Assembly (NCBI RefSeq): GCF_045037415.1
Contig: NZ_CP173438.1
Direction: 5' to 3' (one strand)
DNA: 64,000 nt
Origin: Escherichia coli
GTDB taxonomy: Bacteria; Pseudomonadota; Gammaproteobacteria; Enterobacterales; Enterobacteriaceae
The position numbers and the translations under genes are program-made. The notes beneath the pieces were generated by a model. That model searched no databases, was not told the DNA's origin, and was given only the letters and a program-made list of their open reading frames with translations. Within the stretch, counting starts at the first letter, position 1, and every line of letters starts with the position of its first letter. Below are positions 49,272 through 64,000 of this stretch, piece after piece.

Positions 49272-50678
49272 TCAGAAGATGGTGAATGGTGCGATTACCA
49301 TAAATTTCACGTCACGCTCATCCTGGAAGATGTTGCCATAACCACCGCCCCAGCTTGGGATGTCGGAGTGGTTGTCGTATTCGGTGAAGTGCAGTTTGAA
49401 CATCGTGCCTTTGGCGCGGCCGTCCTGAATGGTGTAGACCGCATCCAGGCTGTAGGCAGACTCTTCAATAGTCCGGTTTTTGTCGTAGTACGCATCCGGA
49501 TTGCTCTGCCAGGTAGCGGGTTTAGCATCCCATGCGTAAACGTAGGAGGCGCCGATGGCAAAACCTGGAAGATTCCAGTTTTTCAGGTCATACATCGCGC
49601 CGAAGAAGACCGCTTTTTCGCCGTTGGCGTTGAAGTCAGAACGGTTATCCCACCAGATATCCAGGCGACCGTTCGAGGAAGCGTAGGTTGGTGTCATACG
49701 TTGCAGGAAGTATCCCTGCTGACCGTCGGCTTTAACCCAGGTGCCTTCCAGACGCAAATCCACTACGTCAGCCGCCCGGTAACCAAAGGTCAACGCCTGC
49801 AGCCAGGCGGTGCCGTCATAAAGATCGTTGGCGCTGCGATCGTCAACTTTATCGCGCGTGCCATAGAACTGGTAGCTGGTGGTTAACGGGCTACCGGCGA
49901 TATCAAATTTGTAGCTGGCTTTGGCAAAATATTGATCGATATACCCTTCGGCCTGACCAAACGCCGCTTCCAGTACGAAGTTATTTTTGAAGTCGTACTT
50001 CGCCCCAAGGGAGTGTAGATAATCAACTTTGGTGGTTTTATCGTTCTGATAAAACTCATCCATTTCCAGATGCCACGGTGCTTTGTATTCGTTGGTCCAC
50101 ATGTAGGAGAAACTCAACGCACCAGCATCGCCGTAATCAAAATTCGCCCCGGCCTCCGCCCCCTGATAAGTACCCGGCATAAAGCTCCAGTGTGGCGCTA
50201 ACAGCGTCTGACCGGTTGGCTGAATATAACCTGCCCTCGCCCAAACCGGACCGTATTTAAATTTGGCCGCTGCTTTATACAGGCTTATACCGCTTTTATC
50301 GCCGGACCAGTCTTCGTCATAGGCTTTATTACTTTTTGAAAACGCGATTTCGTTCGGGTGAGAGCTGTCGCCGTTTTCCGCCATTTCAATCGCCGTAAAC
50401 GCGGCAATATCAAGGCCGAACATATCAGCAGCATAACCAGACTGAAAATCGAGGTTGGCGTTCCAGGTGGAGTGAGAAAGGTTGGTTTTGTATTTATCGC
50501 CGTCGGTAACATCTTTACGGTCGCGTTCACGCTGCCAGTAATAGATACCGCCGGTTAAGGTTGAATCGTCGATGAATCCTTCGGCGCGAGCCTCCGGAAT
50601 TGCCATAAAGCCCGACATAGCTGTAACACCGGCGATAGCCAGCGCCAGCGTACTACGTTTGCCACTAAACGCACGCAT
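49272..50678 (-). CDS. chiP: chitooligosaccharide-specific outer-membrane porin (OprD family)
   Basis: 468 aa; signal peptide; C-terminal aromatic residue typical of beta-barrels. Confidence 0.9.
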
Positions 50679-51030
50679 GGGTTAATCCTCTTTGACGTAT
50701 AAATTGCTGCACCAAAGGTGAACAGCGAAAAAAATAAAAATTAAAAAAGTAGCGTTGAGAAAAGTCTCGCTGACTACAGGAACAGACTATTTTTCGCGAC
50801 GCGAATTATCAATCTCTTTCTGTAACCAGAATGTAAGAACATGAGCAACCGCACATATTTTGATGATTTTTGTTACAAGGCTTAAGTTTGCAGTTGAAAG
50901 GCTTGCAGAAGAATAAAAACGTGAAATTCCAGCAAGATGAAAGCGGTTACATTTTATTTAATTATGTTTTGTGATTTTAAATTTATTTTATGGATAAATT
51001 GCGAAGCGGAATTAATTCGCGAAGAAAAGC

Positions 51031-51058
51031 AGAAAAAAACGCCGCAGAGCGCGGCGTT
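51031..51058 (-). terminator. Intrinsic terminator downstream of glnS
   Basis: aacgccgc-agag-gcggcgtt hairpin with a U-run on the minus strand. Confidence 0.6.
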
Positions 51059-51080
51059 TGGGATAATTTGCATATTTCTT

Positions 51081-51110
51081 GCCGGATGCGGCGTAAACGC
51101 TCTATCCGAC
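51081..51110. repeat. REP-like palindromic element
   Basis: gccggatgcggcgtaaacgctctatccgac resembles the REP consensus. Confidence 0.4.
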
Positions 51111-51119
51111 AACGTAAAC

Positions 51120-52784
51120 TTACTCGCCTACTTTCGCCCAGGTATCACGCAGCCCAACGGTGCGGTTAAATACCGGTTTTTCCGCCGTAGAATGGCGGCT
51201 GTCGAGGCAGAAGTAACCTTCACGCTCAAACTGGAATGCTTTACCCGCAACCGCATCTTTCAGCGACGGTTCAGCAAAGCCCTGTTTGATCACCAGCGAT
51301 TCCGGGTTAATCACCGACAGGAAATCATCCGCAGCACCAGGGTTCGGCACGCTGAACAGACGGTCATACAAACGGATTTCAACCGGCAGCGCATGTGCCG
51401 CGCTCACCCAGTGAATAACACCTTTGACTTTACGACCATCTGCCGGATCTTTGCTTAAGGTGTCGGCGTCATAAGTACAGAAGATGGTGGTGATATTGCC
51501 TTCGGCATCTTTCTCCACGCGTTCTGCCTTAATGACGTAAGCATTACGCAGACGCACTTCTTTACCCAGCACCAGACGTTTGTACTGCTTGTTAGCTTCT
51601 TCGCGGAAATCGGCGCGATCGATCCAAATCTCACCGCTAAATGGCACCTGACGGCTGCCCATTTCCGGTTTATTCGGATGGTTCGGCATGGTAACCATTT
51701 CGCCTTCGCCCTGGTAGTTTTCGATAACCAGTTTCACCGGATCGATAACCGCCATTGCGCGCGGCGCATTTTCGTTGAGATCTTCACGGATGCAGGATTC
51801 CAGTGACGCCATCTCAATGGTGTTGTCCTGCTTGGTCACACCAATGCGTTTGCAGAACTCACGAATAGAAGCCGCAGTGTAACCACGACGACGCAGACCA
51901 GAAATGGTCGGCATACGCGGGTCATCCCAGCCTTCAACGTGCTTGTCGGTCACCAGCAGGTTCAGCTTACGCTTGGACATCACAGTGTATTCCAGATTCA
52001 GGCGCGAGAATTCGTACTGGCGCGGGTGAACAGGAATGGTGATGTTGTCCAGTACCCAGTCGTACAGACGACGGTTGTCCTGGAACTCAAGCGTACACAG
52101 AGAGTGCGTAATACCTTCCAGCGCATCGCTGATGCAGTGGGTGAAGTCGTACATCGGGTAGATGCACCACTTGTTGCCAGTCTGGTGGTGTTCAGCAAAC
52201 TTAATGCGGTACAGCACCGGATCGCGCATCACGATAAACGGCGAAGCCATGTCGATTTTCGCACGCAGGCAGGCTTTACCTTCTTCAAAACCGCCGGTAC
52301 GCATTTTCTCGAACAGCGCCAGGTTCTCTTCAACGCTGCGATCGCGGTACGGGCTGTTTTTACCCGGCTGCGTCAAGGTGCCGCGGTATTCGCGGATCTG
52401 TTCCGGCGTCAGTTCATCAACGTACGCCAGGCCTTTATTGATCAGTTCGATCGCATAGGCGTGGAGCTGATCAAAATAATCGGAGGAGTAACGGACGTTA
52501 CCAGACCAGTGAAAACCTAACCACTCTACGTCGTTTTTGATCGAATCGACATACTCGATATCTTCTTTTACCGGGTTAGTGTCGTCGAAACGCAGGTTGC
52601 ACTGGCCTTTATAGTCCTGGGCGATCCCGAAGTTCAGGCAGATAGATTTCGCATGGCCAATATGCAGATAGCCATTCGGCTCCGGCGGGAAACGGGTGTG
52701 TACTGTGGTGTGCTTACCACTGGCCAGATCTTCATCGATGATCTGACGGATAAAGTTAGTCGGGCGGGCTTCTGCCTCACTCAT
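51120..52784 (-). CDS. glnS: glutaminyl-tRNA synthetase
   Basis: 554 aa; class I HIGH motif ([14 protein letters not shown]) and MSK motif. Confidence 0.97.
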
Positions 52785-53003
52785 CGTGGATTCCTCAAAG
52801 CGTAAACAACGTATAACGGCGTATGATCTTATAAGCGGGACAGGCTGACAACTGTTAGTTAGCGAAAAAATGGTTTTGCGTAAGATATTGGGGCGTTTTC
52901 TGCGCTACTGCCAGCAGATCCTCGCGCTGGAAACGTAAGGCCAAACGTCGCCAGCCTGACGCATTTATTAAATTTCCGGATGAGCTGGCCGCAGAGTCGT
53001 AGA

Positions 53004-53765
53004 TTAGTCGGCTATGATTAAACGCGTCGACAAGGACGCAAGCGTTCTACGCGTCTGCCCATCAAGCTGACTATCCGTAATAATCTCTGTCAGTTCATTA
53101 AGATGCGCGATATTAAACAGCGACCATGAACCGTATTTTGAGCTGTCAGCCAGGAGAATTTTGCGCGAAGCATGCGCGATAAGATCGCGTTTTAGTGCGG
53201 CTTTCTCTTCCGTGGGTGCTGTAATACCCTTTTCAAGATCCCAGCTGTTACAGCTTAAAAATGCCACGTCCGGCCAGGTATTTTGCAGCAATTTACGACC
53301 ATGTTCGCCAATGCAGGACTGGCTGGAGTCGTCAATACGTCCGCCGATAATCGTCACTTCAATTTGCTTGAATTCAGCCAAAAAAAGCGCGATATGCAGG
53401 TCGCTTGTGATCACGCGAAGCGGTAAATGTGTAATCTGCCGCGCAAGTTCAATCATTGTCGTACCGGCATCAAGGACGACGGAATCCCCCGCTTTGACCA
53501 TTGACGCCGCTGCGCTGGCGATGGCATGTTTTTCCGCCAGGCTGCGCTGCATTTTCTCATGGGTAGTCGGTTGGGTAGGAATAAACCGGTTGAGAGTCAC
53601 ACCGCCGTGTGTACGGCTGATAACACCCTGCTCATCGAGTTTTATCAGGTCTCGACGAATCGTAGCCGGCGACGCATTGGTTACCGCCACCAGCTCATCT
53701 ACGGTGACCAGATTATGGCTTTTCAGGTAATCCATGATCTGCTCTAACCGGTTATATCCCTTCAT
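53004..53765 (-). CDS. DeoR-family transcriptional regulator
   Basis: 253 aa; N-terminal HTH ([17 protein letters not shown]) and C-terminal sugar-phosphate sensor domain. Confidence 0.85.
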
Positions 53766-53766
53766 T

Positions 53767-54753
53767 TTATTCTCGCGAAATCTGCATTGCTAACTGGATG
53801 GAAACTGCCATGCTCTCAGACTTGGCTTTTCCTGTCCAGGCAATATCAAACGCGGTGCCGTGGTCGGCAGAAGTGCGAATAAATGGCAACCCGGCGGTGA
53901 TATTCACCCCATCATAAAATCCAAGCAGTTTTAAAGGGATATGCCCCTGATCGTGGTACATAGCCACTACCATATCGAATAGCCCTTCATGGCATTGCAT
54001 AAACACGGTATCTGGCGGGCACGGGCCAGTAACATCAATATCTTCGGCCTGCATTGCTTCAATCGCAGGCGCGATAATCTCGATTTCCTCAGTGCCGAAT
54101 AAACCATGTTCCCCTGCATGTGGATTTACACCCGCCACGGCAATACGCGGACGCTCAATACCAACACGTTTCAGGAAGTGGTTCGCAACTCGAATAACCG
54201 TTTTGACCCTTTCACCATTCAAAGTATCCAGGAATTTACGCAGTGAGATGTGAGTCGAAATATGGATAACCTTGAGCTTCTCGGTATAGAGCACCATCGC
54301 GTACTCTTTGCTGCCGGTAAGATGGGCCAGCAATTCCGTATGCCCCGGATAGTTATGCCCGCCAAGATGCAGCGCTTCTTTATTCAGCGGCGCAGTGGCT
54401 ATGGCTTTCACCTCGCCTGATAAGGCCAGAGCCGTTGCACGTTTGATACAGCGATACGCTAAATCGCCTGCCACAGCCTGTACCACTCCGGGTGTCAGCG
54501 CATCGGGGTTAGCCAGCGGCTCATCCATCACGTTAATCACGCCGGGAGCAAAATGGGCGTCGCACACCTTTTGAATGACGCGTAACTCTGCCTGCGGCGT
54601 GATATTCATCGCCATAATACGTCGCAGCGTGCGCACACAGCCCACCACCACCACCGGGGCACCAGCAAGCCCGGCTTCGCTCAGGGATTTAATAATGATC
54701 TCCGGGCCAATACCCGCCGGATCGCCCATCGTTACCGCAATAATATTATTCAC
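53767..54753 (-). CDS. PdxA-family NAD-dependent dehydrogenase (PdxA2-like, 4-phospho-hydroxy-acid oxidative decarboxylase type)
   Basis: 328 aa; [21 protein letters not shown]-terminus typical of PdxA; 8-nt overlap with the upstream kinase. Confidence 0.85.
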
Positions 54754-55984
54754 TACGCTTCTCCTCGATAAAATTCAGAACCTGATGCAACGTGGTCTCA
54801 TCGCCAAACCCACCGGCTTTCGTCATCACCGAACGGGACCAGACGCCGCCCAGAAAGTGACCGTATGGAACGCATTGCGCCACCTTCCCCGTAATACGAA
54901 ATCCGGTCGCGCCTAACGCACTGGCTGTTGCCATTGCGACATCACCACCAGAGAGATAAAGCGCATCGGGCATTGCGCAAAGCAGAACTTGCCGGGTAAG
55001 TTCGCCAAGAAACCGGCAAATTTTTTCCCCAAGTGCAGCGCGACTCATCTGCCAACGCTGGCAAAGGGTGTCGATCTGATGCCTTGCTACAGAATCGTTA
55101 CAGGTGTGGACAATACAGTGGTCGCCTTTCTGCAAGGCCTGCACAATACGCGCGTCATAGTCACTGGCATTGCCTGCCAGAATGTGTTCAACATCGACGT
55201 ATATCTGTGTGATACGTGGGTGTGAATGAAGTGTGGCGATCTGCCGTTGAGCGATTTCGCTCATTGAACCAATAATGGCCAGCACGGTGGGTGGCGGCAT
55301 AATCGCGGAGCGCCGGGCAACGGCATCACAAATACCAGCGGAGCCGACCAGCAGCAGCGGTTGTTTAGCCTGCATCACAGCGGCAGCGATGCGATCCAGG
55401 TCGCTGTCCGTCTGCGCATCTATCACGCCAATCCACGGTTGCTCATAAGACAAATGGCTGAGCTGAGAAACCGTAACGGGCTGGCATGGAATGGCCGTCT
55501 GCAACCGGATGATGTCCGCAATTCGGGCGCTCAATACCGGGGTTTTCGGATCGCTAGCAAACTCGGTTTCCGTTATCCGCACACCGTTTACCCAACACTC
55601 ACCGGCCACTGTGGTCCTTCCCGCCTGAGGAAATGCGGGGGCAACCACTGCGCCCGTTATACCGCATGCCTTCATCAGGGCTTCAATTTCTGCGCCGATA
55701 TTGCCTCGCAGCGTGGAATCTATCTTTTTAATCACGAGCGGCGGGTTATTCGCCAGAGGGAGATGACTCATCAGCGAGGTTATTTTCATCGCCGCCAGCT
55801 TAGGATCCATCGCCCGACTGTCGCTGTTAATCACCCATACGCTGGCATCACCGCGATAAGGCATTTCAAAGGCCACATCAACTGTATGCCCCACCTGCGC
55901 CAGGCTTACCCCCGCGTCGTTGGCTCCCGTGAAATCATCGGCAACGATGAGAATGCTCGGCTTAGTGATTCCCTTTTCCATCAT
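54746..55984 (-). CDS. DUF1537-family four-carbon acid-sugar kinase
   Basis: ORF-track frame to 56023 (TTG); start placed at tandem Met MMEKGITKPSILIVADDFTGANDAG, typical of the family. Confidence 0.8.
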   Translation of the reverse strand: MMEKGITKPSILIVADDFTGANDAGVSLAQVGHTVDVAFEMPYRGDASVWVINSDSRAMDPKLAAMKITSLMSHLPLANNPPLVIKKIDSTLRGNIGAEIEALMKACGITGAVVAPAFPQAGRTTVAGECWVNGVRITETEFASDPKTPVLSARIADIIRLQTAIPCQPVTVSQLSHLSYEQPWIGVIDAQTDSDLDRIAAAVMQAKQPLLLVGSAGICDAVARRSAIMPPPTVLAIIGSMSEIAQRQIATLHSHPRITQIYVDVEHILAGNASDYDARIVQALQKGDHCIVHTCNDSVARHQIDTLCQRWQMSRAALGEKICRFLGELTRQVLLCAMPDALYLSGGDVAMATASALGATGFRITGKVAQCVPYGHFLGGVWSRSVMTKAGGFGDETTLHQVLNFIEEKRSE

Positions 55985-56019
55985 CACTCCAGGTTGTTTT
56001 ATGATAACAATGATTATAT

Positions 56020-56033
56020 TCAATCATGATTGA
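56020..56033. promoter_or_regulatory. Perfect 14-bp palindrome TCAATCA|TGATTGA, candidate operator
   Basis: Located about 35 bp upstream of the kinase start in the divergent intergenic region. Confidence 0.4.
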
Positions 56034-56116
56034 TTAAATGTGAGCAAGCTCAAGTTATTAATCACTCGAATAAATTATAAAATTAGACCATGTTACGTAG
56101 GCTACGGCATTTTGAA

Positions 56117-56132
56117 TGATTGAATTCAATCA
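56117..56132. promoter_or_regulatory. Perfect 16-bp palindrome TGATTGAA|TTCAATCA, candidate operator
   Basis: Same half-site as 56020..56033 in opposite arrangement; about 20 bp upstream of the Fe-ADH start. Confidence 0.4.
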
Positions 56133-56150
56133 CCAGAAGAGAGGTTATTT

Positions 56151-57308
56151 GTGGTAATTATCAATAGCACGATACTGAGCGGCGCAGGCGCTATCCCTTC
56201 CCTGACGTCGCTCTTACCCGACATCAGAAAAATGCTGCTGGTCACTGACCGTAATATTGCGCAGCTCGACGGTGTGCAGCAGATTCGCGCCTTACTGGAA
56301 AAGCACTGCCCGCAGGTTAACGTTATCGATAATGTGCCCGCAGAGCCCACGCATCATGATGTGCGCCAGCTAATGGATGCCCTTGGCGATGCCTCTTTTG
56401 ATGTGGTGGTCGGGATCGGCGGTGGCAGCGTGTTGGATGTGGCGAAGCTGCTATCGGTGCTTTGCCATCCACAATCACCGGGGCTGGATGCGCTGCTTGC
56501 GGGTGAAAAACCGACTCAGCGGGTGCAATCATGGTTGATTCCTACAACCGCCGGAACCGGCTCAGAAGCCACGCCGAATGCGATTCTGGCAATCCCTGAG
56601 CAAAGCACGAAGGTGGGTATTATTTCCCAGGTGCTGTTACCAGACTATGTGGCGCTTTTCCCGGAACTGACCACCAGTATGCCCGCGCATATTGCGGCGT
56701 CCACGGGCATTGATGCTCTTTGCCACTTACTGGAGTGTTTTACCGCGACCGTGGCAAATCCGGTCAGCGATAACGCGGCGCTGACTGGGTTAAGTAAACT
56801 TTTCCGGCACATTCAACCCGCCGTGAACGATCCTCAGGATCTGCGCGCAAAACTGGAAATGCTGTGGGCGTCTTACTATGGCGGCGTAGCGATAACCCAT
56901 GCGGGCACGCATCTCGTTCATGCGCTCTCCTACCCGTTAGGTGGCAAATATCATCTGCCGCATGGCGTCGCGAATGCCATCTTGCTGGCGCCGTGCATGG
57001 CGTTTGTTCGCCCCTGGGCGGTCGAGAAATTTGCCCAGGTCTGGGATTGCATTCCCGATGCGGAAACCGCCCTGAGCGCGGAAGAAAAATCTCATGCCCT
57101 GGTGACCTGGTTACAGGCATTAGTCAATCAACTCAAGCTACCCAACAATCTCGCGGATCTCGGCGTACCGCCAGAGGATATTGCCTCTCTGAGCGAGGCG
57201 GCACTGAACGTGAAGCGCCTTATGAACAATGTGCCGTGCCAGCTTGATCTACAGGACGTACAGGCCATTTACCAAACACTGTTTCCGCAACATCAATTTA
57301 AGGAATAA
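56151..57308 (+). CDS. iron-containing (group III) alcohol dehydrogenase
   Basis: 385 aa; GTG start with GAGAGG Shine-Dalgarno; GGGSVLD and metal-binding His motifs. Confidence 0.85.
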   Translation: MVIINSTILSGAGAIPSLTSLLPDIRKMLLVTDRNIAQLDGVQQIRALLEKHCPQVNVIDNVPAEPTHHDVRQLMDALGDASFDVVVGIGGGSVLDVAKLLSVLCHPQSPGLDALLAGEKPTQRVQSWLIPTTAGTGSEATPNAILAIPEQSTKVGIISQVLLPDYVALFPELTTSMPAHIAASTGIDALCHLLECFTATVANPVSDNAALTGLSKLFRHIQPAVNDPQDLRAKLEMLWASYYGGVAITHAGTHLVHALSYPLGGKYHLPHGVANAILLAPCMAFVRPWAVEKFAQVWDCIPDAETALSAEEKSHALVTWLQALVNQLKLPNNLADLGVPPEDIASLSEAALNVKRLMNNVPCQLDLQDVQAIYQTLFPQHQFKE

Positions 57309-57311
57309 ATC

Positions 57312-58199
57312 ATGCCGAAAACCATTGAAGGTGTATTAACCGCTATCGTCACCCCGTTTACCGCGACCGGCAGTCTGAATATCCCGGCGTTAAAAGTGCA
57401 GGTGAATCGTCAACTGGAAGCGGGTAACGCGATTTTTTGCGGCGGCACCAACGGCGAGTTTTTTGTGTTGAATGAACAGGAGAAGCTCAGCGTTACGCAA
57501 ACCTGCGTGGATGAAGTGGCTGGTCGTGCGCCAGTCGTGGCACACATTGGCGAGATCTCTACGCGCGAAACGATTCGTCTGGGTCAGCAGATTGAAAAAC
57601 TTGGCGTAGATGCCGTGTCGGTCATTGCCCCTTACTTCGTACCGCTGAAACAGGAAGAGTTGATTGCGCATTACAGCGCAATTGCCGACACACTGAGCAT
57701 TCCGATGTTTCTCTATAACATCCCGGCCCGCACTGGCAATACGATCCAGCCAGAAACCGCGCGTGCTCTGGCGTCGCACCCCAATATCATTGGGATTAAA
57801 GACAGCGACGGAAGCGACGAAAGCCTGAAGGGTTTTCTCGATGCGGTGCGCGACATTGACGGCTTTAATGTGCTCAACGGCCCGGATTCGCTGATCCATA
57901 AAGGGTTTGTCGAGGGATGTTCAGCCTGTATCTCTGGGCTCGCCAACGTCGCGCCGCGAGAAATCAATGCCATCTGGTCTCGCTTCCATGCCGGTGATAT
58001 TGAAGGGTCTTATGAAGCACAGGAGAGTGTAACGGGCCTGCGTACCGATCTTTATAAAGTAGCATTCTCCCCGGCTGCGGTGAAAAAAGCGTTGCAGCTT
58101 ATGGGGCATGATGTTGGTGATAGCCGCTACGCGGTTAATTTCACGCCTGAACAGATCAGCGAGATTCAACAAATTATTCGTCATTATAACATTAATTAA
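57312..58199 (+). CDS. DapA/NanA-family class I aldolase (pyruvate-lyase type)
   Basis: 295 aa; GTNGEF motif, Schiff-base lysine in IIGIKDS, Tyr in LYNIP. Confidence 0.85.
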   Translation: MPKTIEGVLTAIVTPFTATGSLNIPALKVQVNRQLEAGNAIFCGGTNGEFFVLNEQEKLSVTQTCVDEVAGRAPVVAHIGEISTRETIRLGQQIEKLGVDAVSVIAPYFVPLKQEELIAHYSAIADTLSIPMFLYNIPARTGNTIQPETARALASHPNIIGIKDSDGSDESLKGFLDAVRDIDGFNVLNGPDSLIHKGFVEGCSACISGLANVAPREINAIWSRFHAGDIEGSYEAQESVTGLRTDLYKVAFSPAAVKKALQLMGHDVGDSRYAVNFTPEQISEIQQIIRHYNIN

Positions 58200-58258
58200 A
58201 TTAACTCTATTATCCAGCCCGCTATAAAGTTTAGATAAAGAGAATAAAGGATTACCCC

Positions 58259-59017
58259 ATGTTTTTGTGGTTTATGCAGCCAGATATCTGGCTCACTTTA
58301 ATTACCCTCACCTTTCTGGAAATTATTCTTGGGGTGGATAATATTATTTTTCTTTCACTGGTGGTGGCAAAACTTCCGTTATCACAACAAAATATGGCGC
58401 GTAAACTGGGTTTAAGCTGCGCGATGATTATGCGGATATTATTGCTGATATCCATTGCGTGGCTTTCACATATTACCCAGCCGCTTTTTACCGTGCTGAC
58501 GCTGGAGATTTCGTTCCGCACGTTGATTCTGCTCGGGGGCGGGCTGTTCCTGATTTATAAAGCGATACAGGAGATACGCGAAGAGCTGTCGCCCGCGCAG
58601 GAAGACGAACATGGCAGCGGATCGCGGCAACTGTCGTTGTGCGGTGCCATTGTACAGATAATGCTGCTCGATATCGTGTTTAGCCTGGATTCGGTGATCA
58701 CCGCCGTCGGCCTTTCTCAGCATATATTTATCATGATTGCCGCCGTAATGATTGCCGTCGGTGTCATGATGTTTGCGGCGAAAACAATTGGTGATTTCGT
58801 TAACGCCACGCCGTCAATAAAAATACTGGCGTTAACCTTTTTATTGTTTGTCGGTGTATTGCTGGTTGCCGATAGTCTCAACATTCATATTGCCAAAGAG
58901 TATCTCTACTTCGCGATATTTTTCTCATTAAGTGTTGAGACACTCAATATTATCCGTGAAAGAAAAAATAAAAAAGTTTCGACATTGATCGAAACGCATG
59001 AATCGCACTCGCATTAA
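58259..59017 (+). CDS. TerC-family integral membrane protein (YgdQ-like)
   Basis: 252 aa; LGVDNIIFLSLVVAKLP and QIMLLDIVFSLDSVITAVGL motifs. Confidence 0.8.
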   Translation: MFLWFMQPDIWLTLITLTFLEIILGVDNIIFLSLVVAKLPLSQQNMARKLGLSCAMIMRILLLISIAWLSHITQPLFTVLTLEISFRTLILLGGGLFLIYKAIQEIREELSPAQEDEHGSGSRQLSLCGAIVQIMLLDIVFSLDSVITAVGLSQHIFIMIAAVMIAVGVMMFAAKTIGDFVNATPSIKILALTFLLFVGVLLVADSLNIHIAKEYLYFAIFFSLSVETLNIIRERKNKKVSTLIETHESHSH

Positions 59018-59052
59018 TAAATCTATTACCAACTTTAAGATGGAGTCTAACT

Positions 59053-60222
59053 ATGTCTGTAGCCCTTATTCGTGACGGCGTCATCCGTCCATCCGAAAAC
59101 GATTCGCATGTGCTTACCGCCATGCTGCCCTCGTCCTGCCCGCAAAACCACGCGGCGAATATTCTGCCTTTGCCGGATGGCGCGTTAATGTGCGTCTGGT
59201 TTGCGGGAACGCAGGAAGGTATTGCCGATATTTCTGTCTGGGGATCGCGATTGCCCGCTGGCGGAATGCAGTGGAGCGATGCGGCCAAACTTTCCCACGA
59301 TGACACGCGTTCAGAGCAAAACCCGGTGCTGTTTCTCGCGCCGGATAACGTGCTGTGGCTCCTATGGACCGCACAAATATCCGGTAATCAGGACACCGCC
59401 ATCGTCCGCTACCGTAAGTCAGACGACCTCGGACAAACCTGGGGCGAGATTGCCACCCTGCTTGATAAACCCGGTACGTTCATTCGACAGCCAATCACGG
59501 TGCTTGATAACGGCAACTGGCTGCTGCCCGTCTTTTATTGCCGTACCCAACCCGGCGAAAAATGGGTCGGCAATGATGATATCAGCGCAGTGAAAATTTC
59601 CGCTGACGGTGGTCACTCCTGGCGCGATGTCGAGGTGCCGCAAAGTCTCGGCTGTGTTCATATGAATATCACAATGTTGCACGACGGTACGTTGGTTGCT
59701 CTCTTTCGCAGCCGTTGGGCAGACAACATCTATATCAGCCATTCAGTGGACAACGGCGAGAGTTGGTCGGTGCCGCAAGCAACCGAATTGCCCAACAACA
59801 ATTCGTCTATTCAGGTAACGACGCTTGCCAGCGGCGAACTGGCGCTGGTGTACAACGCGATGAGTGCGGCAGGCGCAGTAGAACGTCGCGCGTCGCTTTA
59901 TGACGAAATCGACGATGGCGACGACAGCCGCAAAGAACCGACAGCCGTCGGACGCTCCGCTTTCTGGGGTGCCCCACGCGCGCCGATGACGGTAGCGATT
60001 TCTGCCGATGGTGGGAAAAGCTGGTCGTGGCGGCGCAATCTCGATGAAGGCGACGGCTACTGCATGACCAACAATTCCCTGGAAAAGCTAAATCGTGAGT
60101 TCTCCTACCCCAGCATCAAACAAAGCCCGGACGGTACGCTACATATCGCTTACACCTGGTGGCGTCAGGCCATCAAGTACGTACGCATCTCCCCCGAGTG
60201 GGTTAAGGGGCAGGCATCATGA
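59053..60222 (+). CDS. BNR/Asp-box repeat protein, sialidase-like beta-propeller, no signal peptide
   Basis: 389 aa; four Asp-boxes (SDDLGQTW, SADGGHSW, SVDNGESW, SADGGKSW); N-terminus not hydrophobic. Confidence 0.8.
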   Translation: MSVALIRDGVIRPSENDSHVLTAMLPSSCPQNHAANILPLPDGALMCVWFAGTQEGIADISVWGSRLPAGGMQWSDAAKLSHDDTRSEQNPVLFLAPDNVLWLLWTAQISGNQDTAIVRYRKSDDLGQTWGEIATLLDKPGTFIRQPITVLDNGNWLLPVFYCRTQPGEKWVGNDDISAVKISADGGHSWRDVEVPQSLGCVHMNITMLHDGTLVALFRSRWADNIYISHSVDNGESWSVPQATELPNNNSSIQVTTLASGELALVYNAMSAAGAVERRASLYDEIDDGDDSRKEPTAVGRSAFWGAPRAPMTVAISADGGKSWSWRRNLDEGDGYCMTNNSLEKLNREFSYPSIKQSPDGTLHIAYTWWRQAIKYVRISPEWVKGQAS

Positions 60223-60689
60223 TTATCGGTAATCTCAACCATTTGTCGCTGGCGGGGCTTCCTGCCTGGGTGAGAAATATTCTGCTGCGCCCGGAGTGTT
60301 CGTTATCGGCGTTATCCACCAGAGAGGACGGTCGCTGGCAACCTGAAGGATGTCGGTGGTTCTGCTCGCTGGGAACTTCAGACACGCAACCCGCCGAACT
60401 TCGCCATACGGAGTATCACCATCTATGGGCCGATATACAGGTGGTGATTACTGGTTGTGAGGGCATTAATGCGGGAACGCGGCCCATCGCTCGCGAAAAC
60501 GATGAAGAACGTAAGCCCGATCTGTTTATCGCCCCATCCCCTGAAAACAGTGTCGCCATCACCCTACACGCCGGTGATTTCGCCGTCTTTATGCCTGAGG
60601 AACCTCACCAGGCACTGTGCGCAATTGGCACGGCTACTTCAATACGCAAAGCGGTCTTTAAAGTACCGCGCGACATGCTGGAAGCCTAA
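60219..60689 (+). CDS. YhcH/YjgK/YiaL-family (DUF386) protein
   Basis: 156 aa; ATGA start/stop overlap with the BNR gene. Confidence 0.75.
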   Translation: MIIGNLNHLSLAGLPAWVRNILLRPECSLSALSTREDGRWQPEGCRWFCSLGTSDTQPAELRHTEYHHLWADIQVVITGCEGINAGTRPIARENDEERKPDLFIAPSPENSVAITLHAGDFAVFMPEEPHQALCAIGTATSIRKAVFKVPRDMLEA

Positions 60690-60702
60690 AAGGAGAGAAA
60701 AA

Positions 60703-61983
60703 ATGACAATGGAAATGATCCTGGCATTAGGAATACTGGTCCTGATGATCGTGCTGATCATGTCGGACAAAATGCCTTTTGGCGCACCGCCACTGCTTGC
60801 GTGTTTATTGCTGGTTGTATCGGGACTTTCGACCGTTCAACAGGCTTTTGCCGGATTCGTCAATCCAAGCGTGGTGATGATTGCAGGGTTTATGGTGGTC
60901 ATGGCGGCGCTACAAAAAACCCGGCTTATCAGCAACGTTAAATCTGCGATGATAAGCCTGGTCAATAAAGGCAGTTACCGCAGCTATGGGCTGTTATTAG
61001 TCATTGTTATGCTGGGTGCCAGTCTTGCCGGCACCGGAGCGACCGGTTATTACGTGCTAATTCTGTCGCTGGTATCCACCATTCCGTACAGTAAAAAGCT
61101 ACCAACATCGAAATTAATGATGCCCCTGGGATTTGCCACCAACCACCCGCTTCTTCCTATCAATCTCGCGCTTCTCTTTGGCGTTACGGCGACCGTACTC
61201 GAAACCGCGGGGTTTCATCAGGCGATTTCGATGGGGCGCTTTGCGCTGGTGAATCTCATCATGTCAGCGGCTTTCCTCGCATGGAGTCTTATTGCCTACC
61301 GTTTTCTTCCGGATCATCCCATTGCGGATGCTTCCGAGGATGCGCTGGCGGCACGCGAGGAAACGTTTAACGCCCTTCCTGCCTGGAAAGAATATTGCAC
61401 TATTGCCGCATTCGCTGTCAGCGTTATCGGCATGATGCTAATGAACATTCTGGGAAATATCGCCTTCGTTATTCCGGGTCTTGCGGGTGCGTTTGTTCTG
61501 ATGATCGATGTACTGGACTTCAAAGAAGTTCGCGATCATATGGGGGCTCCGGTCATTTTAATGATGGCGGGGGTGATCGGTGTAGCTGATGCACTGGCGG
61601 GCACCGGCTTTACGGCGATGGTTGGCGATGCCGTTGCAGGTGTGCTCGGTTCTGGCGTCTCACCGTTTGTATTTATTGTCGCCTTTGCTTTGCTTACCAG
61701 TACCTGCGCCACCTTCACGGGTTCGAATATGGGGTCAGTATATATTTTTGCCCCCATCGCCATTGCCGCCTGTACTAGCCTTGGGCTTAACCCGACCGCT
61801 GCCGCGATTGCGGTGGTGATTTCTGGCTGGAATGGCGGCTATATGCCTATTGACGGAATGCCAGCCATGATCCTCGGAATGGGGAAATACAAACTTCCCG
61901 AATTCTGGGTGTTCTCTGTACCAATGTATCTCATCCGCATTCTGGCGCTTTGTGCAGGCGCTGTTTTTATCTTCCCAATGTAA
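60703..61983 (+). CDS. polytopic permease, ion-transporter superfamily (DASS/CitMHS-like), substrate unknown
   Basis: ORF-track frame from 60457 overlaps upstream genes; start placed at ATG 60703 (MTMEMILALGILVL) after AAGGAGAG Shine-Dalgarno. Confidence 0.75.
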   Translation: MTMEMILALGILVLMIVLIMSDKMPFGAPPLLACLLLVVSGLSTVQQAFAGFVNPSVVMIAGFMVVMAALQKTRLISNVKSAMISLVNKGSYRSYGLLLVIVMLGASLAGTGATGYYVLILSLVSTIPYSKKLPTSKLMMPLGFATNHPLLPINLALLFGVTATVLETAGFHQAISMGRFALVNLIMSAAFLAWSLIAYRFLPDHPIADASEDALAAREETFNALPAWKEYCTIAAFAVSVIGMMLMNILGNIAFVIPGLAGAFVLMIDVLDFKEVRDHMGAPVILMMAGVIGVADALAGTGFTAMVGDAVAGVLGSGVSPFVFIVAFALLTSTCATFTGSNMGSVYIFAPIAIAACTSLGLNPTAAAIAVVISGWNGGYMPIDGMPAMILGMGKYKLPEFWVFSVPMYLIRILALCAGAVFIFPM

Positions 61984-61991
61984 TCTCAGAC

Positions 61992-62027
61992 AAAAAAAGC
62001 GGCAGAGAAGATCCCTGCCGCTTTTTA
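61992..62027 (+). terminator. Intrinsic terminator of the island-B plus-strand operon
   Basis: aaaaaaagcggcag-agaagatcc-ctgccgcttttt hairpin with a T-run. Confidence 0.65.
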
Positions 62028-62032
62028 TTGTT

Positions 62033-62057
62033 GGATGCGACGCTGCCGCGTCGCATC
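62033..62057. repeat. REP-like palindrome between the island-B operon and nagE
   Basis: ggatgcgacgc-tgc-cgcgtcgcatc. Confidence 0.4.
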
Positions 62058-62071
62058 AGACATAAAGCAGA

Positions 62072-64000
62072 TTACTTTTTGATTTCATACAGCGGTGTTT
62101 GACCCGCCACAACATGGCCCTGAGCTTTAATGATAAGGCCGCTGAAATCATCGATATTGCTGCAAACCACCGGGCTAATCATCGAACGGGCGTTAGCGTT
62201 CAGGTAATCCAGATCCATTTCCAGAATCGGTTGCCCTGCGCTTACCTGCGCGCCCTCTTCCACCAGACGTTTAAAGCCTTTACCTTCCAGCGCTACGGTG
62301 TCGATACCCATATGGACGACGATCTCCGCGCCTTTTTCGGTTTCCAGACAGAACGCGTGGTTGGTGTTGAAGATTTTCACGATTGTTCCTGCGGCTGGTG
62401 ATACGACGATTTTATCTGTCGGTTTCACCGCCACACCGTCACCCACCGCTTTGCTGGCGAATGCTTCGTCAGGAATCTGATCCAGTGCCACAACATCCCC
62501 GGTAATCGGCGATACCAGCTCCGCGATAGATACCGCGTTTGGTACAGCCTGCGGTTTTGCTACAGGAGCGGCAGTTGCCGGAGTTGCTTCAGCTGACGCA
62601 GCGGCTACCGGACCACGGGCAACGACTTTCTTCATCGCATCGCCGATGGATTCTGCTTTCGCGCCAACAATCACCTGAATAGTCTGTTTGTTCAGTTTTA
62701 CTACCCCAGAAGCACCCAGACGTTTACACATCGCATCGTTGACGCGAGCTGAGTCAACCACGGTAAGGCGCAGACGAGTAATACAGGCGTCAATGGCTTT
62801 CAGGTTGTCAGTACCGCCAACCGCAGCAATATAGTTGGTTGCCAGTTGATTGAGACCTTCTTCAGTATTGCTGTTAGCCTCTTCAGTAACGATCTCGTCT
62901 TCTTTATCTTCACGACCCGGCGTTTTCAGGTTGAACATGCGGATAACCAAACTGAACACCACGAAGTAGATAGCGAAGAAGACAACCCCCATCACCAGCA
63001 GCATCCAGACGTTCTGGCTGGCGGCCGGCAGGTTATACATCAACGCGTAGTCGATAGCCCCCGCAGAGAAAGAGAAGCCGGCATGGATACCCAGCAACGT
63101 TGCCACAAACAGGCTGATACCGGTCAGCAGTGCGTGCAGGAGGTACAGCAGCGGTGCAAGGAACATGAACAGGAATTCCAGCGGCTCAGTCACACCGGTC
63201 AGGAACGCAGTAACAGCAACAGAAAGCAGCATCCCGCCAACCATCGGACGACGCTCTTTCGGTGCTGCGAAGTACATCGCCAGCGCCGCACCCGGCAGGC
63301 CGAACATCATAATCGGGAAGAAGCCGGACATGAACATCCCCGCGGTGCCGTCACCGGCATAGAAGCGGTTGATATCACCGTGGAAAACCGTTCCCGCCGC
63401 GTTGGTGAATTCACCAATCTGGAACCAGGCGATGGTGTTCAGCACCTGATGCAGACCGGTTGGGATCAGCAGACGGTTGATGAAACCAAAGATACCGGAA
63501 CCCAGCGCGCCCGCAGAAACGATCCACTCGCCGCCTGCATGGATAGCGTGCTGTACCGGTGGCCAGACGTAACCAAAAATGGCCGCCAGCACCAGACAGA
63601 AGAAGCCGGTGGCTATCGGCACAAAGCGTTTGCCGCCGAAGAAGCTCAGGAAGTCCGGCAGTTTAATATCGGACCAACGGTTATAGGCTGCGCCACCAAC
63701 CAGACCGGTAATGATACCCGCCAGTACACCCATGTTAATTTCTGGGTTGATGGTCACCATCGCTTTGGTTAACACAAAGTAACCTACCGCACCCGCCAGT
63801 GCCGCCGCACCTGCGCTGTCTTTCGACCAGCTGGATGCCACGCCGATGGCGAATATTAATGCGAGGTTATCAAAAATCGCACCGCCCGCCTGGGCAATAA
63901 ACGCAACGTTAAGTAAATCTGGCTGACCGAATCGCAGCAACAGCGCCGCCACCGGCAGCACCGCGATAGGGAGCTGTAACGCCCTACCGAGTCGCTGGAA
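62072..64000 (-). CDS. nagE: PTS N-acetylglucosamine-specific EIICBA, partial (5' end beyond window end)
   Basis: ORF-track protein begins within the N-terminal region (LPVAALLLRFGQPDLLNVAF...); frame stays open to the window edge. Confidence 0.95.
   Translation of the reverse strand, partial: FQRLGRALQLPIAVLPVAALLLRFGQPDLLNVAFIAQAGGAIFDNLALIFAIGVASSWSKDSAGAAALAGAVGYFVLTKAMVTINPEINMGVLAGIITGLVGGAAYNRWSDIKLPDFLSFFGGKRFVPIATGFFCLVLAAIFGYVWPPVQHAIHAGGEWIVSAGALGSGIFGFINRLLIPTGLHQVLNTIAWFQIGEFTNAAGTVFHGDINRFYAGDGTAGMFMSGFFPIMMFGLPGAALAMYFAAPKERRPMVGGMLLSVAVTAFLTGVTEPLEFLFMFLAPLLYLLHALLTGISLFVATLLGIHAGFSFSAGAIDYALMYNLPAASQNVWMLLVMGVVFFAIYFVVFSLVIRMFNLKTPGREDKEDEIVTEEANSNTEEGLNQLATNYIAAVGGTDNLKAIDACITRLRLTVVDSARVNDAMCKRLGASGVVKLNKQTIQVIVGAKAESIGDAMKKVVARGPVAAASAEATPATAAPVAKPQAVPNAVSIAELVSPITGDVVALDQIPDEAFASKAVGDGVAVKPTDKIVVSPAAGTIVKIFNTNHAFCLETEKGAEIVVHMGIDTVALEGKGFKRLVEEGAQVSAGQPILEMDLDYLNANARSMISPVVCSNIDDFSGLIIKAQGHVVAGQTPLYEIKK

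Follow-up and report, generated by a model that had tools for sequence, protein, structure and literature searches.

A cytoplasmic sialidase-fold protein in an Escherichia coli accessory island, its linkage to D-threonate genes and a possible role in Dha breakdown

Genes of the island

The window, a stretch of 64,000 nucleotides of E. coli DNA (contig NZ_CP173438.1), is an accessory island between glnS and nagE. Positions 59053..60222 of its plus strand encode a 389-amino-acid cytoplasmic BNR_2/sialidase-fold protein (the BNR protein), recognized by Pfam, its Asp-boxes and its N-terminus. Pfam BNR_2 covers residues 43-365 (E=3.5e-65), and the four canonical Asp-boxes (S-x-D-x-G-x-(S/T)-W) counted in an earlier note on this DNA were located at residues 123, 183, 231, and 317. 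The protein has the six-bladed beta-propeller with Asp-box repeats that characterizes the GH33 fold. The open reading frame begins with ATG, with GGAG 7 nt upstream. An N-terminal extension is impossible because this ATG is the first start downstream of an in-frame stop and the preceding TerC gene ends at 59017. At the N-terminus (MSVALIRDGVIRPSENDSH...) a hydrophobic h-region is lacking, and the 11-residue Kyte-Doolittle means are below 0 from residue 5. These data confirm the earlier claim that the protein lacks a signal peptide and is cytoplasmic.

The stop codon of the BNR gene overlaps the start of the following YhcH-family gene in an ATGA at 60219-60222, just as the earlier note had described. 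This gene (60219..60689, plus strand) encodes a 156-amino-acid YhcH/YjgK/YiaL-family protein, a predicted anomerase or ring-opener. RefSeq carries the identical two CDSs in E. coli under the names "sialidase family protein" and "YhcH/YjgK/YiaL family protein". The YhcH protein scored 94.9 bits against the subfamily model TIGR00022 (cutoff 45.5), and it is 32.7% identical to NanQ (PMC12928451). Its score against the NanQ equivalog NF040884 was 90.6 bits, below the cutoff of 160, and by this measure it is a paralogue of the Neu5Ac anomerase NanQ and not NanQ itself. The earlier note held that neither partner has a well-defined activity; for YhcH this is out of date, as NCBIfam now contains an "N-acetylneuraminate anomerase" equivalog. 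Immediately downstream, 60703..61983 (plus strand) encodes an SLC13/DASS-family anion permease of 426 amino acids, a predicted di-carboxylate importer.

Upstream of the BNR gene lies a TerC-family integral membrane protein gene (58259..59017, plus strand), whose position inside the operon is confined to E. coli, Klebsiella spallanzanii, and Kluyvera. It is preceded by the gene for a DHDPS/NanA-family class-I aldolase of 295 amino acids (57312..58199, plus strand), predicted to convert Dha to pyruvate and D-threuronate. The lyase had been described as NanA-like and adjacent to the BNR gene; it is not adjacent, because the TerC-family gene intervenes, and it scores closer to DapA than to NanA. 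It falls below every equivalog cutoff (DapA, 188.9 vs 206 bits; NanA, 142 vs 281 and 108.6 vs 382 bits), and by these scores it belongs to the DHDPS/NanA superfamily and is neither DapA nor NanA. It retains the catalytic tyrosine (Y135), the DHDPS-type arginine (R140), and the Schiff-base lysine (K163), with the motifs YNIPARTG, GIKD, and GGTNGE. In DHDPS, R138 binds the carboxylate of aspartate semialdehyde, a C4 aldehyde-acid. The second-best NCBIfam match of the island aldolase is a DapA-type aldolase of 2,4-dihydroxyhept-2-ene-1,7-dioate, a C7 diacid. The next gene (56151..57308, plus strand) encodes an iron-containing alcohol dehydrogenase (Fe-ADH) of 385 amino acids, predicted to be a D-threuronate reductase (D-threonate 4-dehydrogenase); its third-best match is 4-hydroxybutyrate dehydrogenase, which reduces a C4 aldehyde-acid.

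A divergent operon on the minus strand, missed in the earlier note together with the Fe-ADH, encodes two enzymes of D-threonate catabolism that co-occur with the BNR gene across phyla. The first is the D-threonate kinase DtnK (DUF1537; 54746..55981 with the RefSeq start), whose mechanical open reading frame runs to 56023 with a TTG start. The second is a decarboxylating D-threonate 4-phosphate dehydrogenase of the PdxA2 type (53767..54753). Both pass the cutoffs of their NCBIfam equivalogs (NF047819 and NF002891), with 531.1 bits vs 450 for DtnK and 679.2 bits vs 583 for PdxA2. A DeoR/GlpR-family regulator of the island is encoded at 53004..53765, also on the minus strand. Rfam gave no RNA element in 52700-62200, the promoter and terminator scan did not rise above shuffled sequences, and the PHROGs comparison yielded no useful match.

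Active-site residues compared with GH33 and GH143

Catalytic residues were mapped at the level of sequence and profile alignment. A PDB search with the single protein sequence reached an E of about 0.09 only, and a profile was needed for usable matches. Conservation was assessed in 83 orthologues and in 43 diverse homologues, down to 31% identity. The residues conserved in the BNR family are H33, E55, D59, N90, R145, H203, R219, R221, N248, N250, R309, E349, Y352, P353, and R371. The earlier note had proposed checking the arginine triad and the Tyr/Glu pair of GH33 sialidases. Two of the arginines and the tyrosine were recovered as R219, R309, and Y352, whereas by alignment the first arginine is His33, the glutamate is His203, and the acid/base aspartate is Glu55.

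At the alignment level, Arg1 of the triad, from the (F/Y)RIP motif, corresponds to His33 (motif NHA[AS]). This placement was obtained when the profile alignments with 4fj6 and with NanI were extended without gaps, and His33 is also in register with 'RIPALTVTPDGDLL', which we take to be the sequence of the M. viridifaciens sialidase. His33 is conserved in 42 of the 43 diverse homologues and in all 83 orthologues. For Arg2, R219 is aligned with R557 of NanB, and for Arg3, R309 is aligned with the arginine before the last Asp-box in 4fj6, 6mnj, 4bbw, and the 1eur-derived 4j9t. The nucleophile is represented by Y352 (motif E-x-S-Y-P-S), which is aligned with the tyrosine of 'EVGYTT' in the P. acnes sialidase 7lbu and is conserved in 38/43 diverse homologues and 82/83 orthologues. 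The position of the Tyr-activating glutamate is taken by His203, aligned with E541 of NanB and the glutamate of 'TEAQ' in 4fj6; it is His in 23 and Gln in 20 of the diverse homologues and His in every orthologue. About 24 residues past Arg1, at the acid/base aspartate, the invariant Glu55 is aligned with the aspartate of 4fj6 and lies one residue off in NanI, and in these alignments it is a conservative replacement. Together, R219, R309, Y352, and E55 are kept in 82-83 of the 83 orthologues and in 38-43 of the 43 diverse homologues. Three further arginines that are invariant in the family, R145, R221, and R371, would accommodate a second carboxylate. With Arg1 replaced by His33 and the Tyr-activating glutamate by His or Gln, it is doubtful that the BNR protein uses a classical retaining sialidase mechanism.

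Judged from its sequence, the BNR protein is a real, intracellular, sialidase-fold, enzyme-like protein with altered catalytic residues. It may further be catalytically competent, as an atypical member of the sialidase (GH33-like) superfamily of six-bladed propellers, a proposal that belongs to the Dha pathway described below and is equally tentative, with doubt slightly ahead of confidence. It is only 16-19% identical to GH33 exo-alpha-sialidases such as M. viridifaciens NedA (1EUR/1EUT) and human cytosolic Neu2 (1SNT). It differs from them in having His33 for the RIP arginine, His203 (His/Gln) for the glutamate, Glu55 for the aspartate and extra invariant arginines and asparagines, and in a genomic context of D-threonate rather than sialic-acid metabolism. 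The GH143 Dha hydrolase BT1020 (5MQS) of Bacteroides thetaiotaomicron is a five-bladed propeller within a 1081-amino-acid bimodular periplasmic enzyme of an RG-II PUL. In contrast, the E. coli protein is stand-alone, six-bladed and cytoplasmic; it is not a five-bladed propeller homologous to the N-terminal domain of BT1020 and is far more like GH33 than GH143.

Gene linkage, transporters and carriers

Related loci were searched with an alignment of 14 closer sequences, and 81 BNR loci were compared by counting neighbours within 9 kb of the BNR gene. These loci come from Enterobacterales, Vibrio, Pasteurellaceae, Burkholderiaceae, Rhodocyclaceae, Bacillus, Paenibacillus, Negativicutes, Azospirillum, and Acetobacteraceae. 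PdxA-like genes were found at 59 loci, Fe-ADH genes at 57, DHDPS-like genes at 56, and DUF1537 kinase genes at 51; all four types occurred together at 44 loci and at least three at 57. The BNR-YhcH coupling first seen in the window recurs in other taxa (36/81 loci), including Megasphaera and Lucifera. The kinases of distant BNR clusters have the DtnK model, not OtnK, as their best match, and YNIPxRTG is found in 42 of 58 cluster aldolases. An equivalent gene set is present on S. meliloti pSymB and, at 41-49% identity, in two metagenome loci (L086 and L088), and fungal loci combine BNR with DHDPS and in some cases PdxA. In AFDB, a 711-amino-acid protein annotated as PdxA (A0A1I1JV56) and a 648-amino-acid protein with an HpcH/HpaI-aldolase domain (A0A257H979) each match the BNR model over about 383 columns, and from these matches they look like natural BNR-PdxA and BNR-aldolase fusions. 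Of all the genes in the cluster, the BNR gene is the most constant. As part of the same Dha-pathway reading, and held with the same not quite even confidence, its product could be the signature "upper-pathway" enzyme of a conserved, uncharacterised catabolic module.

Several features of these loci count against the Dha model or are left unaccounted for by it. Some alpha-proteobacterial clusters contain another DapA subtype (YHIPQMS). An SDR gene, absent in E. coli, lies beside BNR in 59 of the 81 loci, and the model gives it no role. At 19 loci, none of the four lower-pathway genes occurs within 9 kb of BNR; most of these (Bradyrhizobium and some Pantoea) have BNR with an SSS transporter and SDR only, and the rest are short contigs. 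No pectin or RG-II glycosidase adjoins any BNR cluster examined.

This island has SLC13 as its transporter, while other clusters have an SSS symporter, a TRAP system or an ABC system. SLC13, TRAP, and ACS-MFS, all cluster transporters, are organic-anion carriers. The best PDB match of the TRAP solute-binding proteins is the sialic-acid binder SiaP, the SSS transporter is not SiaT-like, and the solute-binding protein of the S. meliloti cluster is DppA-like. The SLC13, DctP-TRAP, and SSS types suggest a monosaccharide-sized anion as the substrate, so a glycosidase step would not obviously be needed, which sits uneasily with the constancy of the BNR gene.

Carriers are overwhelmingly plant-associated (Pectobacterium, Dickeya, Erwinia, Pantoea, Kosakonia, Bradyrhizobium, Azospirillum, and Paraburkholderia). 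Plasmid-borne BNR genes were counted in Rhizobium (128), Sinorhizobium (78), Pantoea (27), Ralstonia (21), and Agrobacterium (17). Carriers among fungi and algae include Aspergillus section Nigri, Colletotrichum, Cercospora, Gaeumannomyces, and Cymbomonas, a prasinophyte alga. About a fifth of complete E. coli genomes (1048 of 5426) carry the island. A 2026 genome comparison (PMC12928451), which classed the island as uncharacterised, reported it complete in each of its six ExPEC/APEC strains and in AIEC LF82. The pathway considered below would give the island a candidate function.

A candidate Dha pathway and its alternatives

The analysis showed the protein's fold, its residue pattern and cytoplasmic location, the cross-phylum linkage, and the family assignments of DtnK and PdxA2. 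It can be proposed that the cluster degrades Dha, a pectin sugar acid with seven carbons, yielding pyruvate, DHAP, and CO2, with the BNR enzyme upstream. This proposal is tentative, its probability falling a little short of one half. In step 1, the anion transporter would import a seven-carbon 2-keto-3-deoxy dicarboxylic sugar acid. In step 2, the propeller enzyme would act at the carboxylate-bearing anomeric carbon to give one anomer of free Dha, either by hydrolysis of a small Dha ketoside or by conversion of a dehydro or anomeric form, after which the YhcH paralogue would speed anomerisation and ring opening, as NanQ does on Neu5Ac. The DHDPS-type aldolase would then cleave open-chain Dha to pyruvate and D-threuronate (2,3-dihydroxy-4-oxobutanoate; step 3), the Fe-ADH would reduce D-threuronate to D-threonate (step 4), and DtnK and PdxA2 would convert D-threonate to DHAP and CO2 (step 5). 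In a Fischer-projection derivation, C3-C4 cleavage of D-lyxo Dha followed by reduction gives D-threonate specifically. The substrate, steps 2-4, and the chemistry of the propeller are what we infer in this scheme.

The earlier suggestion that an imported sialic-acid-like or anhydro-ulosonic compound is processed here survives in part. A cytoplasmic enzyme-like protein, most plausibly acting on an imported ulosonic (2-keto-3-deoxy) acid upstream of a class-I pyruvate aldolase, is retained, while the sialic-acid link is not supported, given the altered Arg1 and Glu and the D-threonate context. Other candidate substrates were also considered and rejected. The aldolase products of Kdo, KDN, and Neu5Ac (arabinose, mannose, and ManNAc) have no route to D-threonate, D-apiose was dropped with an OiaK model score of only 27 bits, and chelidonate and DKI/unsaturated uronates give no tetronate by carbon count or hydroxyl pattern.

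The proposed route resembles the E. coli NanA/NanQ (YhcH)/NanM/NanY system, in which an ulosonic acid or its locked form is imported, one anomer is delivered, a YhcH-family anomerase opens it, and a class-I DHDPS/NanA aldolase removes pyruvate. Unlike that system, the island components are each paralogues below the equivalog cutoff, and the proposed aldehyde product is an acid (D-threuronate) that leads to D-threonate, not ManNAc. The D-glucarate/galactarate pathway (GarL, GarR, and GarK) is similar and one carbon shorter, running from a 2-keto-3-deoxy-aldarate through pyruvate and an aldehyde-acid to a hydroxy-acid and its phosphorylation; it differs in using a class-II aldolase, a beta-hydroxyacid dehydrogenase, and glycerate kinase, and it has no propeller enzyme. 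The DtnK and PdxA2 pathway, reportedly described by Zhang and colleagues in PNAS in 2016, is said to begin with free D-threonate of unexplained natural origin. Here, the two enzymes appear instead as the tail of a longer route that would make D-threonate internally.

Taken jointly, the island could encode the first route for the catabolism of Dha, a seven-carbon ulosonic diacid specific to RG-II, through pyruvate and D-threuronate, then D-threonate, to DHAP and CO2, and the propeller could found a new sialidase-like family with His/Glu/His for Arg/Asp/Glu and with cytoplasmic activity on Dha. This full combination is possible, although the doubts about it outweigh the confidence. If it is true, the natural origin of D-threonate is explained, and B2/ExPEC E. 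coli, rhizobia, soft-rot bacteria, and pectinolytic fungi have a common route to a pectin-derived niche nutrient freed by primary RG-II degraders. The cluster defines a family of sialidase-like enzymes that is widespread and unstudied and whose catalytic set is changed. The literature search found no paper on Dha catabolism and no functional study of the sialidase-like gene or its D-threonate-linked cluster. According to a 2026 preprint (bioRxiv 10.64898/2026.03.13.711244), primary degraders secrete RG-II sugars, which are then cross-fed, and the pathways that other microbes would use for these products "have not been confirmed". What becomes of Dha and Kdo, both rare RG-II sugars, once Bacteroides or Flavobacteria have released them, and where D-threonate comes from in nature, are two questions to which the cluster offers one testable answer.

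The alternative that survives best keeps the same pathway with a propeller that is not a glycosidase. The BNR protein would act on the free monosaccharide, either as an inverting hemiketal "hydrolase", making it an anomerase comparable in function to NanM, a propeller mutarotase, or as a hydratase that takes the ulosonic acid in a 2,3-dehydro or anhydro form. NanC and IT-sialidases, which interconvert Neu5Ac2en and 2,7-anhydro-Neu5Ac, are a model for the hydratase variant. This version is unlikely overall, while still deserving serious weight. It agrees with transporters of the monosaccharide or small-anion type (SLC13, SiaP-like DctP-TRAP, and SSS), with the absence of a second glycosidase or aglycone pathway in the clusters examined, and with the frequent SDR neighbour, reminiscent of redox-assisted NanY/NanOx chemistry. 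It also agrees with the loss of the Tyr-activating glutamate (His or Gln), a loss that makes the M. viridifaciens sialidase inverting. However, an anomerase would partly duplicate the role of YhcH, and we know of no natural dehydro or anhydro form of Dha. In addition, the ABC transporters of the S. meliloti cluster and the P0121 locus are of the DppA/Opp type, which usually carries larger ligands.

The propeller has also been considered as a sugar-lactonase. A 3-deoxy-heptulosonate would yield pyruvate and D-threose, an SDR would oxidise the threose to D-threono-1,4-lactone, and BNR would hydrolyse this lactone to D-threonate. This route is improbable; the clusters of E. coli, Klebsiella spallanzanii, and S. 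meliloti have no SDR, and the Fe-ADH would be left without a role. The sialidase-type Arg/Arg/Tyr set and the extra arginines indicate that the reaction centre bears a carboxylate, whereas a tetronolactone has none, and SLC13 and the DHDPS-type R140 indicate a dicarboxylate.

An intracellular exo-sialidase or anhydro-sialic-acid hydrolase that acts on Neu5Ac, KDN or 2,7-anhydro-Neu5Ac in concert with YhcH and a NanA-like lyase is very improbable. The GH33 fold with its Asp-boxes, the adjacent YhcH paralogue, and the RefSeq name would fit such an enzyme, but Arg1 and the catalytic Glu are replaced, and the lyase is far under both NanA cutoffs and nearer DapA. In addition, the island has no nanK, nanE or nanT, the conserved partners are D-threonate enzymes unable to take ManNAc or mannose, the carriers are plant and soil organisms, and Lonepinella has a separate nan-like cluster besides its BNR cluster.

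Compared with the Dha pathway, a non-catalytic binding propeller, or a gene placed by chance beside unrelated neighbours, merits hardly any belief: the island is indeed a mosaic, with DtnK 52-57% and PdxA2 about 80% identical to other enterobacterial clusters, but the residues at catalytic positions are invariant in the 83 orthologues and about 43 distant homologues, and the linkage holds across phyla, in fungal loci and in the apparent PdxA and aldolase fusions.

The BNR protein and its catalytic positions

The BNR gene (59053-60222, plus strand) encodes a 389-aa propeller of the sialidase fold. Its ORF opens at the first start codon past an in-frame stop, with a GGAG Shine-Dalgarno sequence, 36 nt 3' of the end of a TerC-family gene (59017). 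Pfam BNR_2 covers residues 43-365 (E=3.5e-65), and the four canonical Asp-boxes described in the earlier note lie at positions 123 (SDDLGQTW), 183 (SADGGHSW), 231 (SVDNGESW) and 317 (SADGGKSW). The same note had held that the protein lacks a signal peptide, which was borne out: in the whole 389-aa ORF read from the first start, the N-terminus shows no evident Sec, Tat or lipoprotein signal, and no alternative start could supply one, because the N-terminus is polar and without a hydrophobic core. The BNR stop indeed overlaps the start (ATGA) of a 156-aa YhcH/YjgK/YiaL-family gene (60219-60689, plus strand). The "adjacent NanA-like lyase" had to be revised, since the TerC-family gene intervenes and the lyase scores nearer to DapA than to NanA.

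Catalytic positions were mapped by sequence and profile alignment. A phmmer alignment to NanB placed R219 on R557 (Arg2 of the GH33 arginine triad) and paired H203 with E541, the activating Glu of the nucleophile Tyr; the latter equivalence was repeated by the family profile against the GH33 structure 4fj6. In this profile alignment the acid/base Asp also falls opposite the invariant E55, and Arg3 opposite R309, directly before the last Asp-box. In sub-profile alignments, Y352 (C-terminal) matched the nucleophile Tyr of the P. acnes sialidase, and E55 (N-terminal) fell at or beside NanI D291. Extending these ungapped alignments four residues upstream put the invariant H33 (motif N-H-A-[AS]) on the Arg of (F/Y)RIP, and the same equivalence is given by the M. 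viridifaciens sialidase when its R-IPALTVTPDGDLL is set in register with H33-AANILPLPDGALM. The arginine triad and Tyr/Glu pair to which the earlier note had pointed thus appear to be retained in part: Arg2, Arg3 and the Tyr are kept, with a Glu carboxylate at the acid/base position, whereas Arg1 is probably replaced by His33 and the Tyr-activating Glu by His203. The protein shares the sialidase-superfamily fold with GH33 but lacks two of its catalytic residues, and it is not a member of GH143.

The mapped residues are kept in 82 or 83 of 83 orthologues from related loci. Among 43 homologues, down to 31% identity, H33 is found in 42, E55 in 43, R219 in 42, R309 in 41 and Y352 in 38, while at position 203 there are 23 sequences with His and 20 with Gln. 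Family-specific conserved residues are N90, R145 (33/43), R221, N248, N250, P353 and R371.

Gene company across taxa

Genomic context is the key evidence. RefSeq annotates nine genes in the glnS-nagE island: on the minus strand, a DeoR regulator, a D-threonate 4-phosphate dehydrogenase (PdxA2) and a D-threonate kinase (DtnK, DUF1537); on the plus strand, an Fe-alcohol dehydrogenase (Fe-ADH), a dihydrodipicolinate-synthase (DHDPS)-family protein, TerC, a "sialidase family protein" (BNR), YhcH and an SLC13 permease. Eighty loci with relatives, one genome per species, were collected and searched with the nine island proteins, and counts were made over 81 loci. Within 9 kb of the BNR gene, a PdxA-like gene occurs in 59, Fe-ADH in 57, a DHDPS-family gene in 56 and the DUF1537 kinase in 51; all four partners occur together in 44 loci, and 57 have three or more. 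Nineteen loci have none of the four, several of these being short contigs. The loci belong to Enterobacterales, Vibrio, Lonepinella, Burkholderia, Paraburkholderia, Rhodocyclaceae, Bacillus, Paenibacillus, Megasphaera, Lucifera, Azospirillum, Roseomonas and Methylobacterium. Even metagenomic homologues of only 41-49% identity retain the gene set in a single operon (kinase, Fe-ADH, PdxA, DHDPS, SDR, BNR, DctPQM in L086; similar in L088), and S. meliloti pSymB has the order DHDPS, ABC transporter, BNR, PdxA, Fe-ADH, GntR, kinase. The aldolase/ADH/D-threonate module is quite probably the functional company of the BNR gene.

The coupling of BNR to YhcH is recurrent (36/81 loci, Negativicutes among them) but not universal. 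An SSS symporter gene lies immediately upstream of BNR in 59/81 loci, its stop often overlapping the BNR start, and a short SDR gene is present in 59/81; both are steadier partners than YhcH. E. coli, K. spallanzanii and Kluyvera carry TerC and SLC13 in place of the SSS and SDR genes. In Lonepinella koalarum, a separate nan-like cluster (L046 14678-21033), which holds a NanA-like gene and a BNR gene of 27% identity, lies a few kb from the BNR/D-threonate cluster, so the two systems coexist and are distinct. Erwinia and Lucifera clusters (L022 6073-8448; L053 4671-7009) contain an extra D-2-hydroxyacid dehydrogenase and a D-galactonate-transporter-like ACS-family MFS protein, a pair through which a related acid sugar may enter by a second way.

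In fungi, BNR adjoins DHDPS-family, aldo-keto-reductase and cytochrome-b5/FMN-dehydrogenase genes (L085 8001-13380; Gaeumannomyces tritici, L089 450-18684), and L085 has a PdxA-like gene, unusual for fungi. MFS genes and a fungal transcription factor are found there as well, and the arrangement has the look of a metabolic gene cluster shared across kingdoms. A Foldseek search of AFDB50 returned a 711-aa Devosia protein annotated PdxA (A0A1I1JV56) and a 648-aa protein annotated HpcH/HpaI aldolase (A0A257H979), each of which aligns with the BNR model at 45-57% identity across roughly 383 columns. Together with a 724-aa protein (A0A9P1JZ79), they are apparent natural (Rosetta-stone) fusions of BNR with PdxA, HpcH/HpaI aldolase and a third module, a reading taken solely from their lengths, TM-scores and annotations. 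The prasinophyte alga Cymbomonas tetramitiformis encodes a 715-aa multi-exon BNR homologue (L084 8001-16842, P0183); prasinophyte scales are rich in the 2-keto sugar acids Kdo and Dha.

Predicted pathway and the propeller step

The E. coli kinase passes the NCBIfam D-threonate kinase equivalog (531 bits, cutoff 450) and the dehydrogenase that of D-threonate 4-phosphate dehydrogenase (679 bits, cutoff 583). For kinases of distant clusters, too, the 3-oxo-tetronate kinase model is a far poorer match than the DtnK model. On these assignments, the pathway must pass through a four-carbon acid sugar. The only route by which a class-I pyruvate aldolase and an ADH could lead to D-threonate would start from a seven-carbon 2-keto-3-deoxy-aldaric acid, which the aldolase would split into pyruvate and 2,3-dihydroxy-4-oxobutanoate; the ADH would then reduce the aldehyde to D-threonate. 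For Dha, the seven-carbon ulosonic diacid of pectin RG-II, the net conversion would be redox-neutral, to pyruvate, DHAP and CO2. In Fischer projections, cleavage and reduction turn C5(L) and C6(R) of D-lyxo Dha into C3(R) and C2(L), respectively, giving D-threonate; this is the isomer assigned to the kinase and fits the Dha scheme.

Independent details fit it as well. The aldolase carries DHDPS-type Y135, R140 and K163, and YNIPxRTG is present in 42 of 58 cluster aldolases; in DHDPS, R138 is a ligand of the carboxylate of a C4 aldehyde-acid. Its second-best family match is the DapA-type aldolase for the C7 diacid 2,4-dihydroxyhept-2-ene-1,7-dioate, and the third-best match of Fe-ADH is 4-hydroxybutyrate dehydrogenase, which reduces the C4 aldehyde-acid succinate semialdehyde. 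The island transporter matches DASS/SLC13 anion carriers, and for the L086 and L088 DctP proteins the best PDB match is SiaP, which binds sialic acid. The scheme is a one-carbon-longer analogue of the glucarate pathway (GarL/GarR/GarK). The island resembles the nan system and the glucarate pathway in logic, but its gene combination and predicted substrate are undescribed; the neighbours of BNR are paralogues of NanQ, DapA/NanA and FucO/4HbD, whereas DtnK and PdxA2 meet equivalog models.

Overall, a pathway for a Dha-type ulosonic diacid, with an atypical cytoplasmic sialidase-like protein as its first enzyme, is proposed tentatively, at slightly less than an even chance. Dha as substrate and the exact BNR reaction are held with lower confidence than module membership, and the BNR step is the weakest part of the scheme. 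Two Arg, the Tyr, the acidic residue and extra arginines would suit chemistry at the carboxylate-bearing anomeric carbon of a dicarboxylic ulosonic acid, and a downstream YhcH anomerase would be sensible if the BNR enzyme yields a single defined anomer in the cytoplasm. A role on Dha after import, or on a small conjugate of it, is favoured on these grounds. The enzyme might hydrolyse a small Dha ketoside, with which the rhizobial DppA-type ABC systems, compatible with larger ligands, agree. Alternatively, its substrate might be the free sugar, which it would anomerise with inversion or, in a dehydro form, hydrate; transporters of the small-anion type and loss of the Tyr-activating Glu would suggest this reading. 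The annotated clusters contain no aglycone-handling or pectin enzymes, and the frequent SDR partner is not explained by the Dha scheme. A true sialidase is much less likely, the Arg1 and Glu substitutions arguing against a textbook retaining enzyme. Also much less likely are a lactonase acting within a tetrose route and a protein without catalytic function, the conservation at catalytic positions arguing for an enzyme rather than a binding module. The earlier note's observation is real, and its interpretation, processing of an imported sialic-acid-like or anhydro-ulosonic compound, is partly supported. If the Dha assignment is true, the pathway would be new and the BNR proteins would probably form a new glycoside-hydrolase-like family. 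The literature searched yielded no paper on how Dha is catabolised.

Carriers and the island in E. coli

Plant association is conspicuous among carriers, which include Pectobacterium, Dickeya, Erwinia, Pantoea, Kosakonia, Klebsiella (oxytoca group), Bradyrhizobium, Azospirillum and Paraburkholderia, and among fungi Aspergillus section Nigri, Colletotrichum, Cercospora and Gaeumannomyces. Plasmid or chromid carriage was found in Rhizobium (128), Sinorhizobium (78), Pantoea (27), Ralstonia (21) and Agrobacterium (17). A recent preprint shows cross-feeding on RG-II: its rare sugars, secreted by primary degraders, feed other microbes from gut, soil and endophytic habitats, and the pathways for several of these sugars are called unconfirmed (bioRxiv 10.64898/2026.03.13.711244).

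In E. coli, the island is carried by 1048 of 5426 genomes, invariably on the chromosome in the glnS-nagE interval, and many complete genomes match the window at 100% identity over the 9-kb segment 53000-62000. The flanks (49272-52784 and 62072-63961) hold the core genes chiP, glnS and nagE, the nagE ORF in the window ORF list beginning at an internal GTG. No mobility genes were seen in that list, and the island is cleanly inserted between glnS and nagE. A 2026 comparative genomics study named it "GR 6 (nagE..glnS)", complete in APEC O1, IMT5155, RS218, IHE3034, 78-Pyelo, CFT073 and AIEC LF82, placed every ORF under "uncharacterized features" and mentioned a similar sialidase/DapA/ADH cluster in Sinorhizobium meliloti (PMC12928451).

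DtnK (54746-55981) is only 52-57% identical to kinases of other enterobacterial clusters, against about 80-86% for PdxA2, DeoR and BNR in related loci, and by this comparison the island is a mosaic. The mechanical DtnK ORF reaches 42 nt upstream of the RefSeq start (TTG at 56023). The SLC13 permease (60703-61983) is 77% identical to that adjoining BNR in Paenibacillus ginsengihumi (L051 11337-12623) and the remaining cluster proteins only 30-63%, which suggests that the transporter gene alone recently moved across phyla. The TerC-family membrane protein (58259-59017) has no obvious role within a sugar-acid catabolic operon, and Rfam found no riboswitch upstream of its gene (52700-62200). In-operon TerC is limited to E. 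coli, Klebsiella spallanzanii and Kluyvera (L003, L011, L040).
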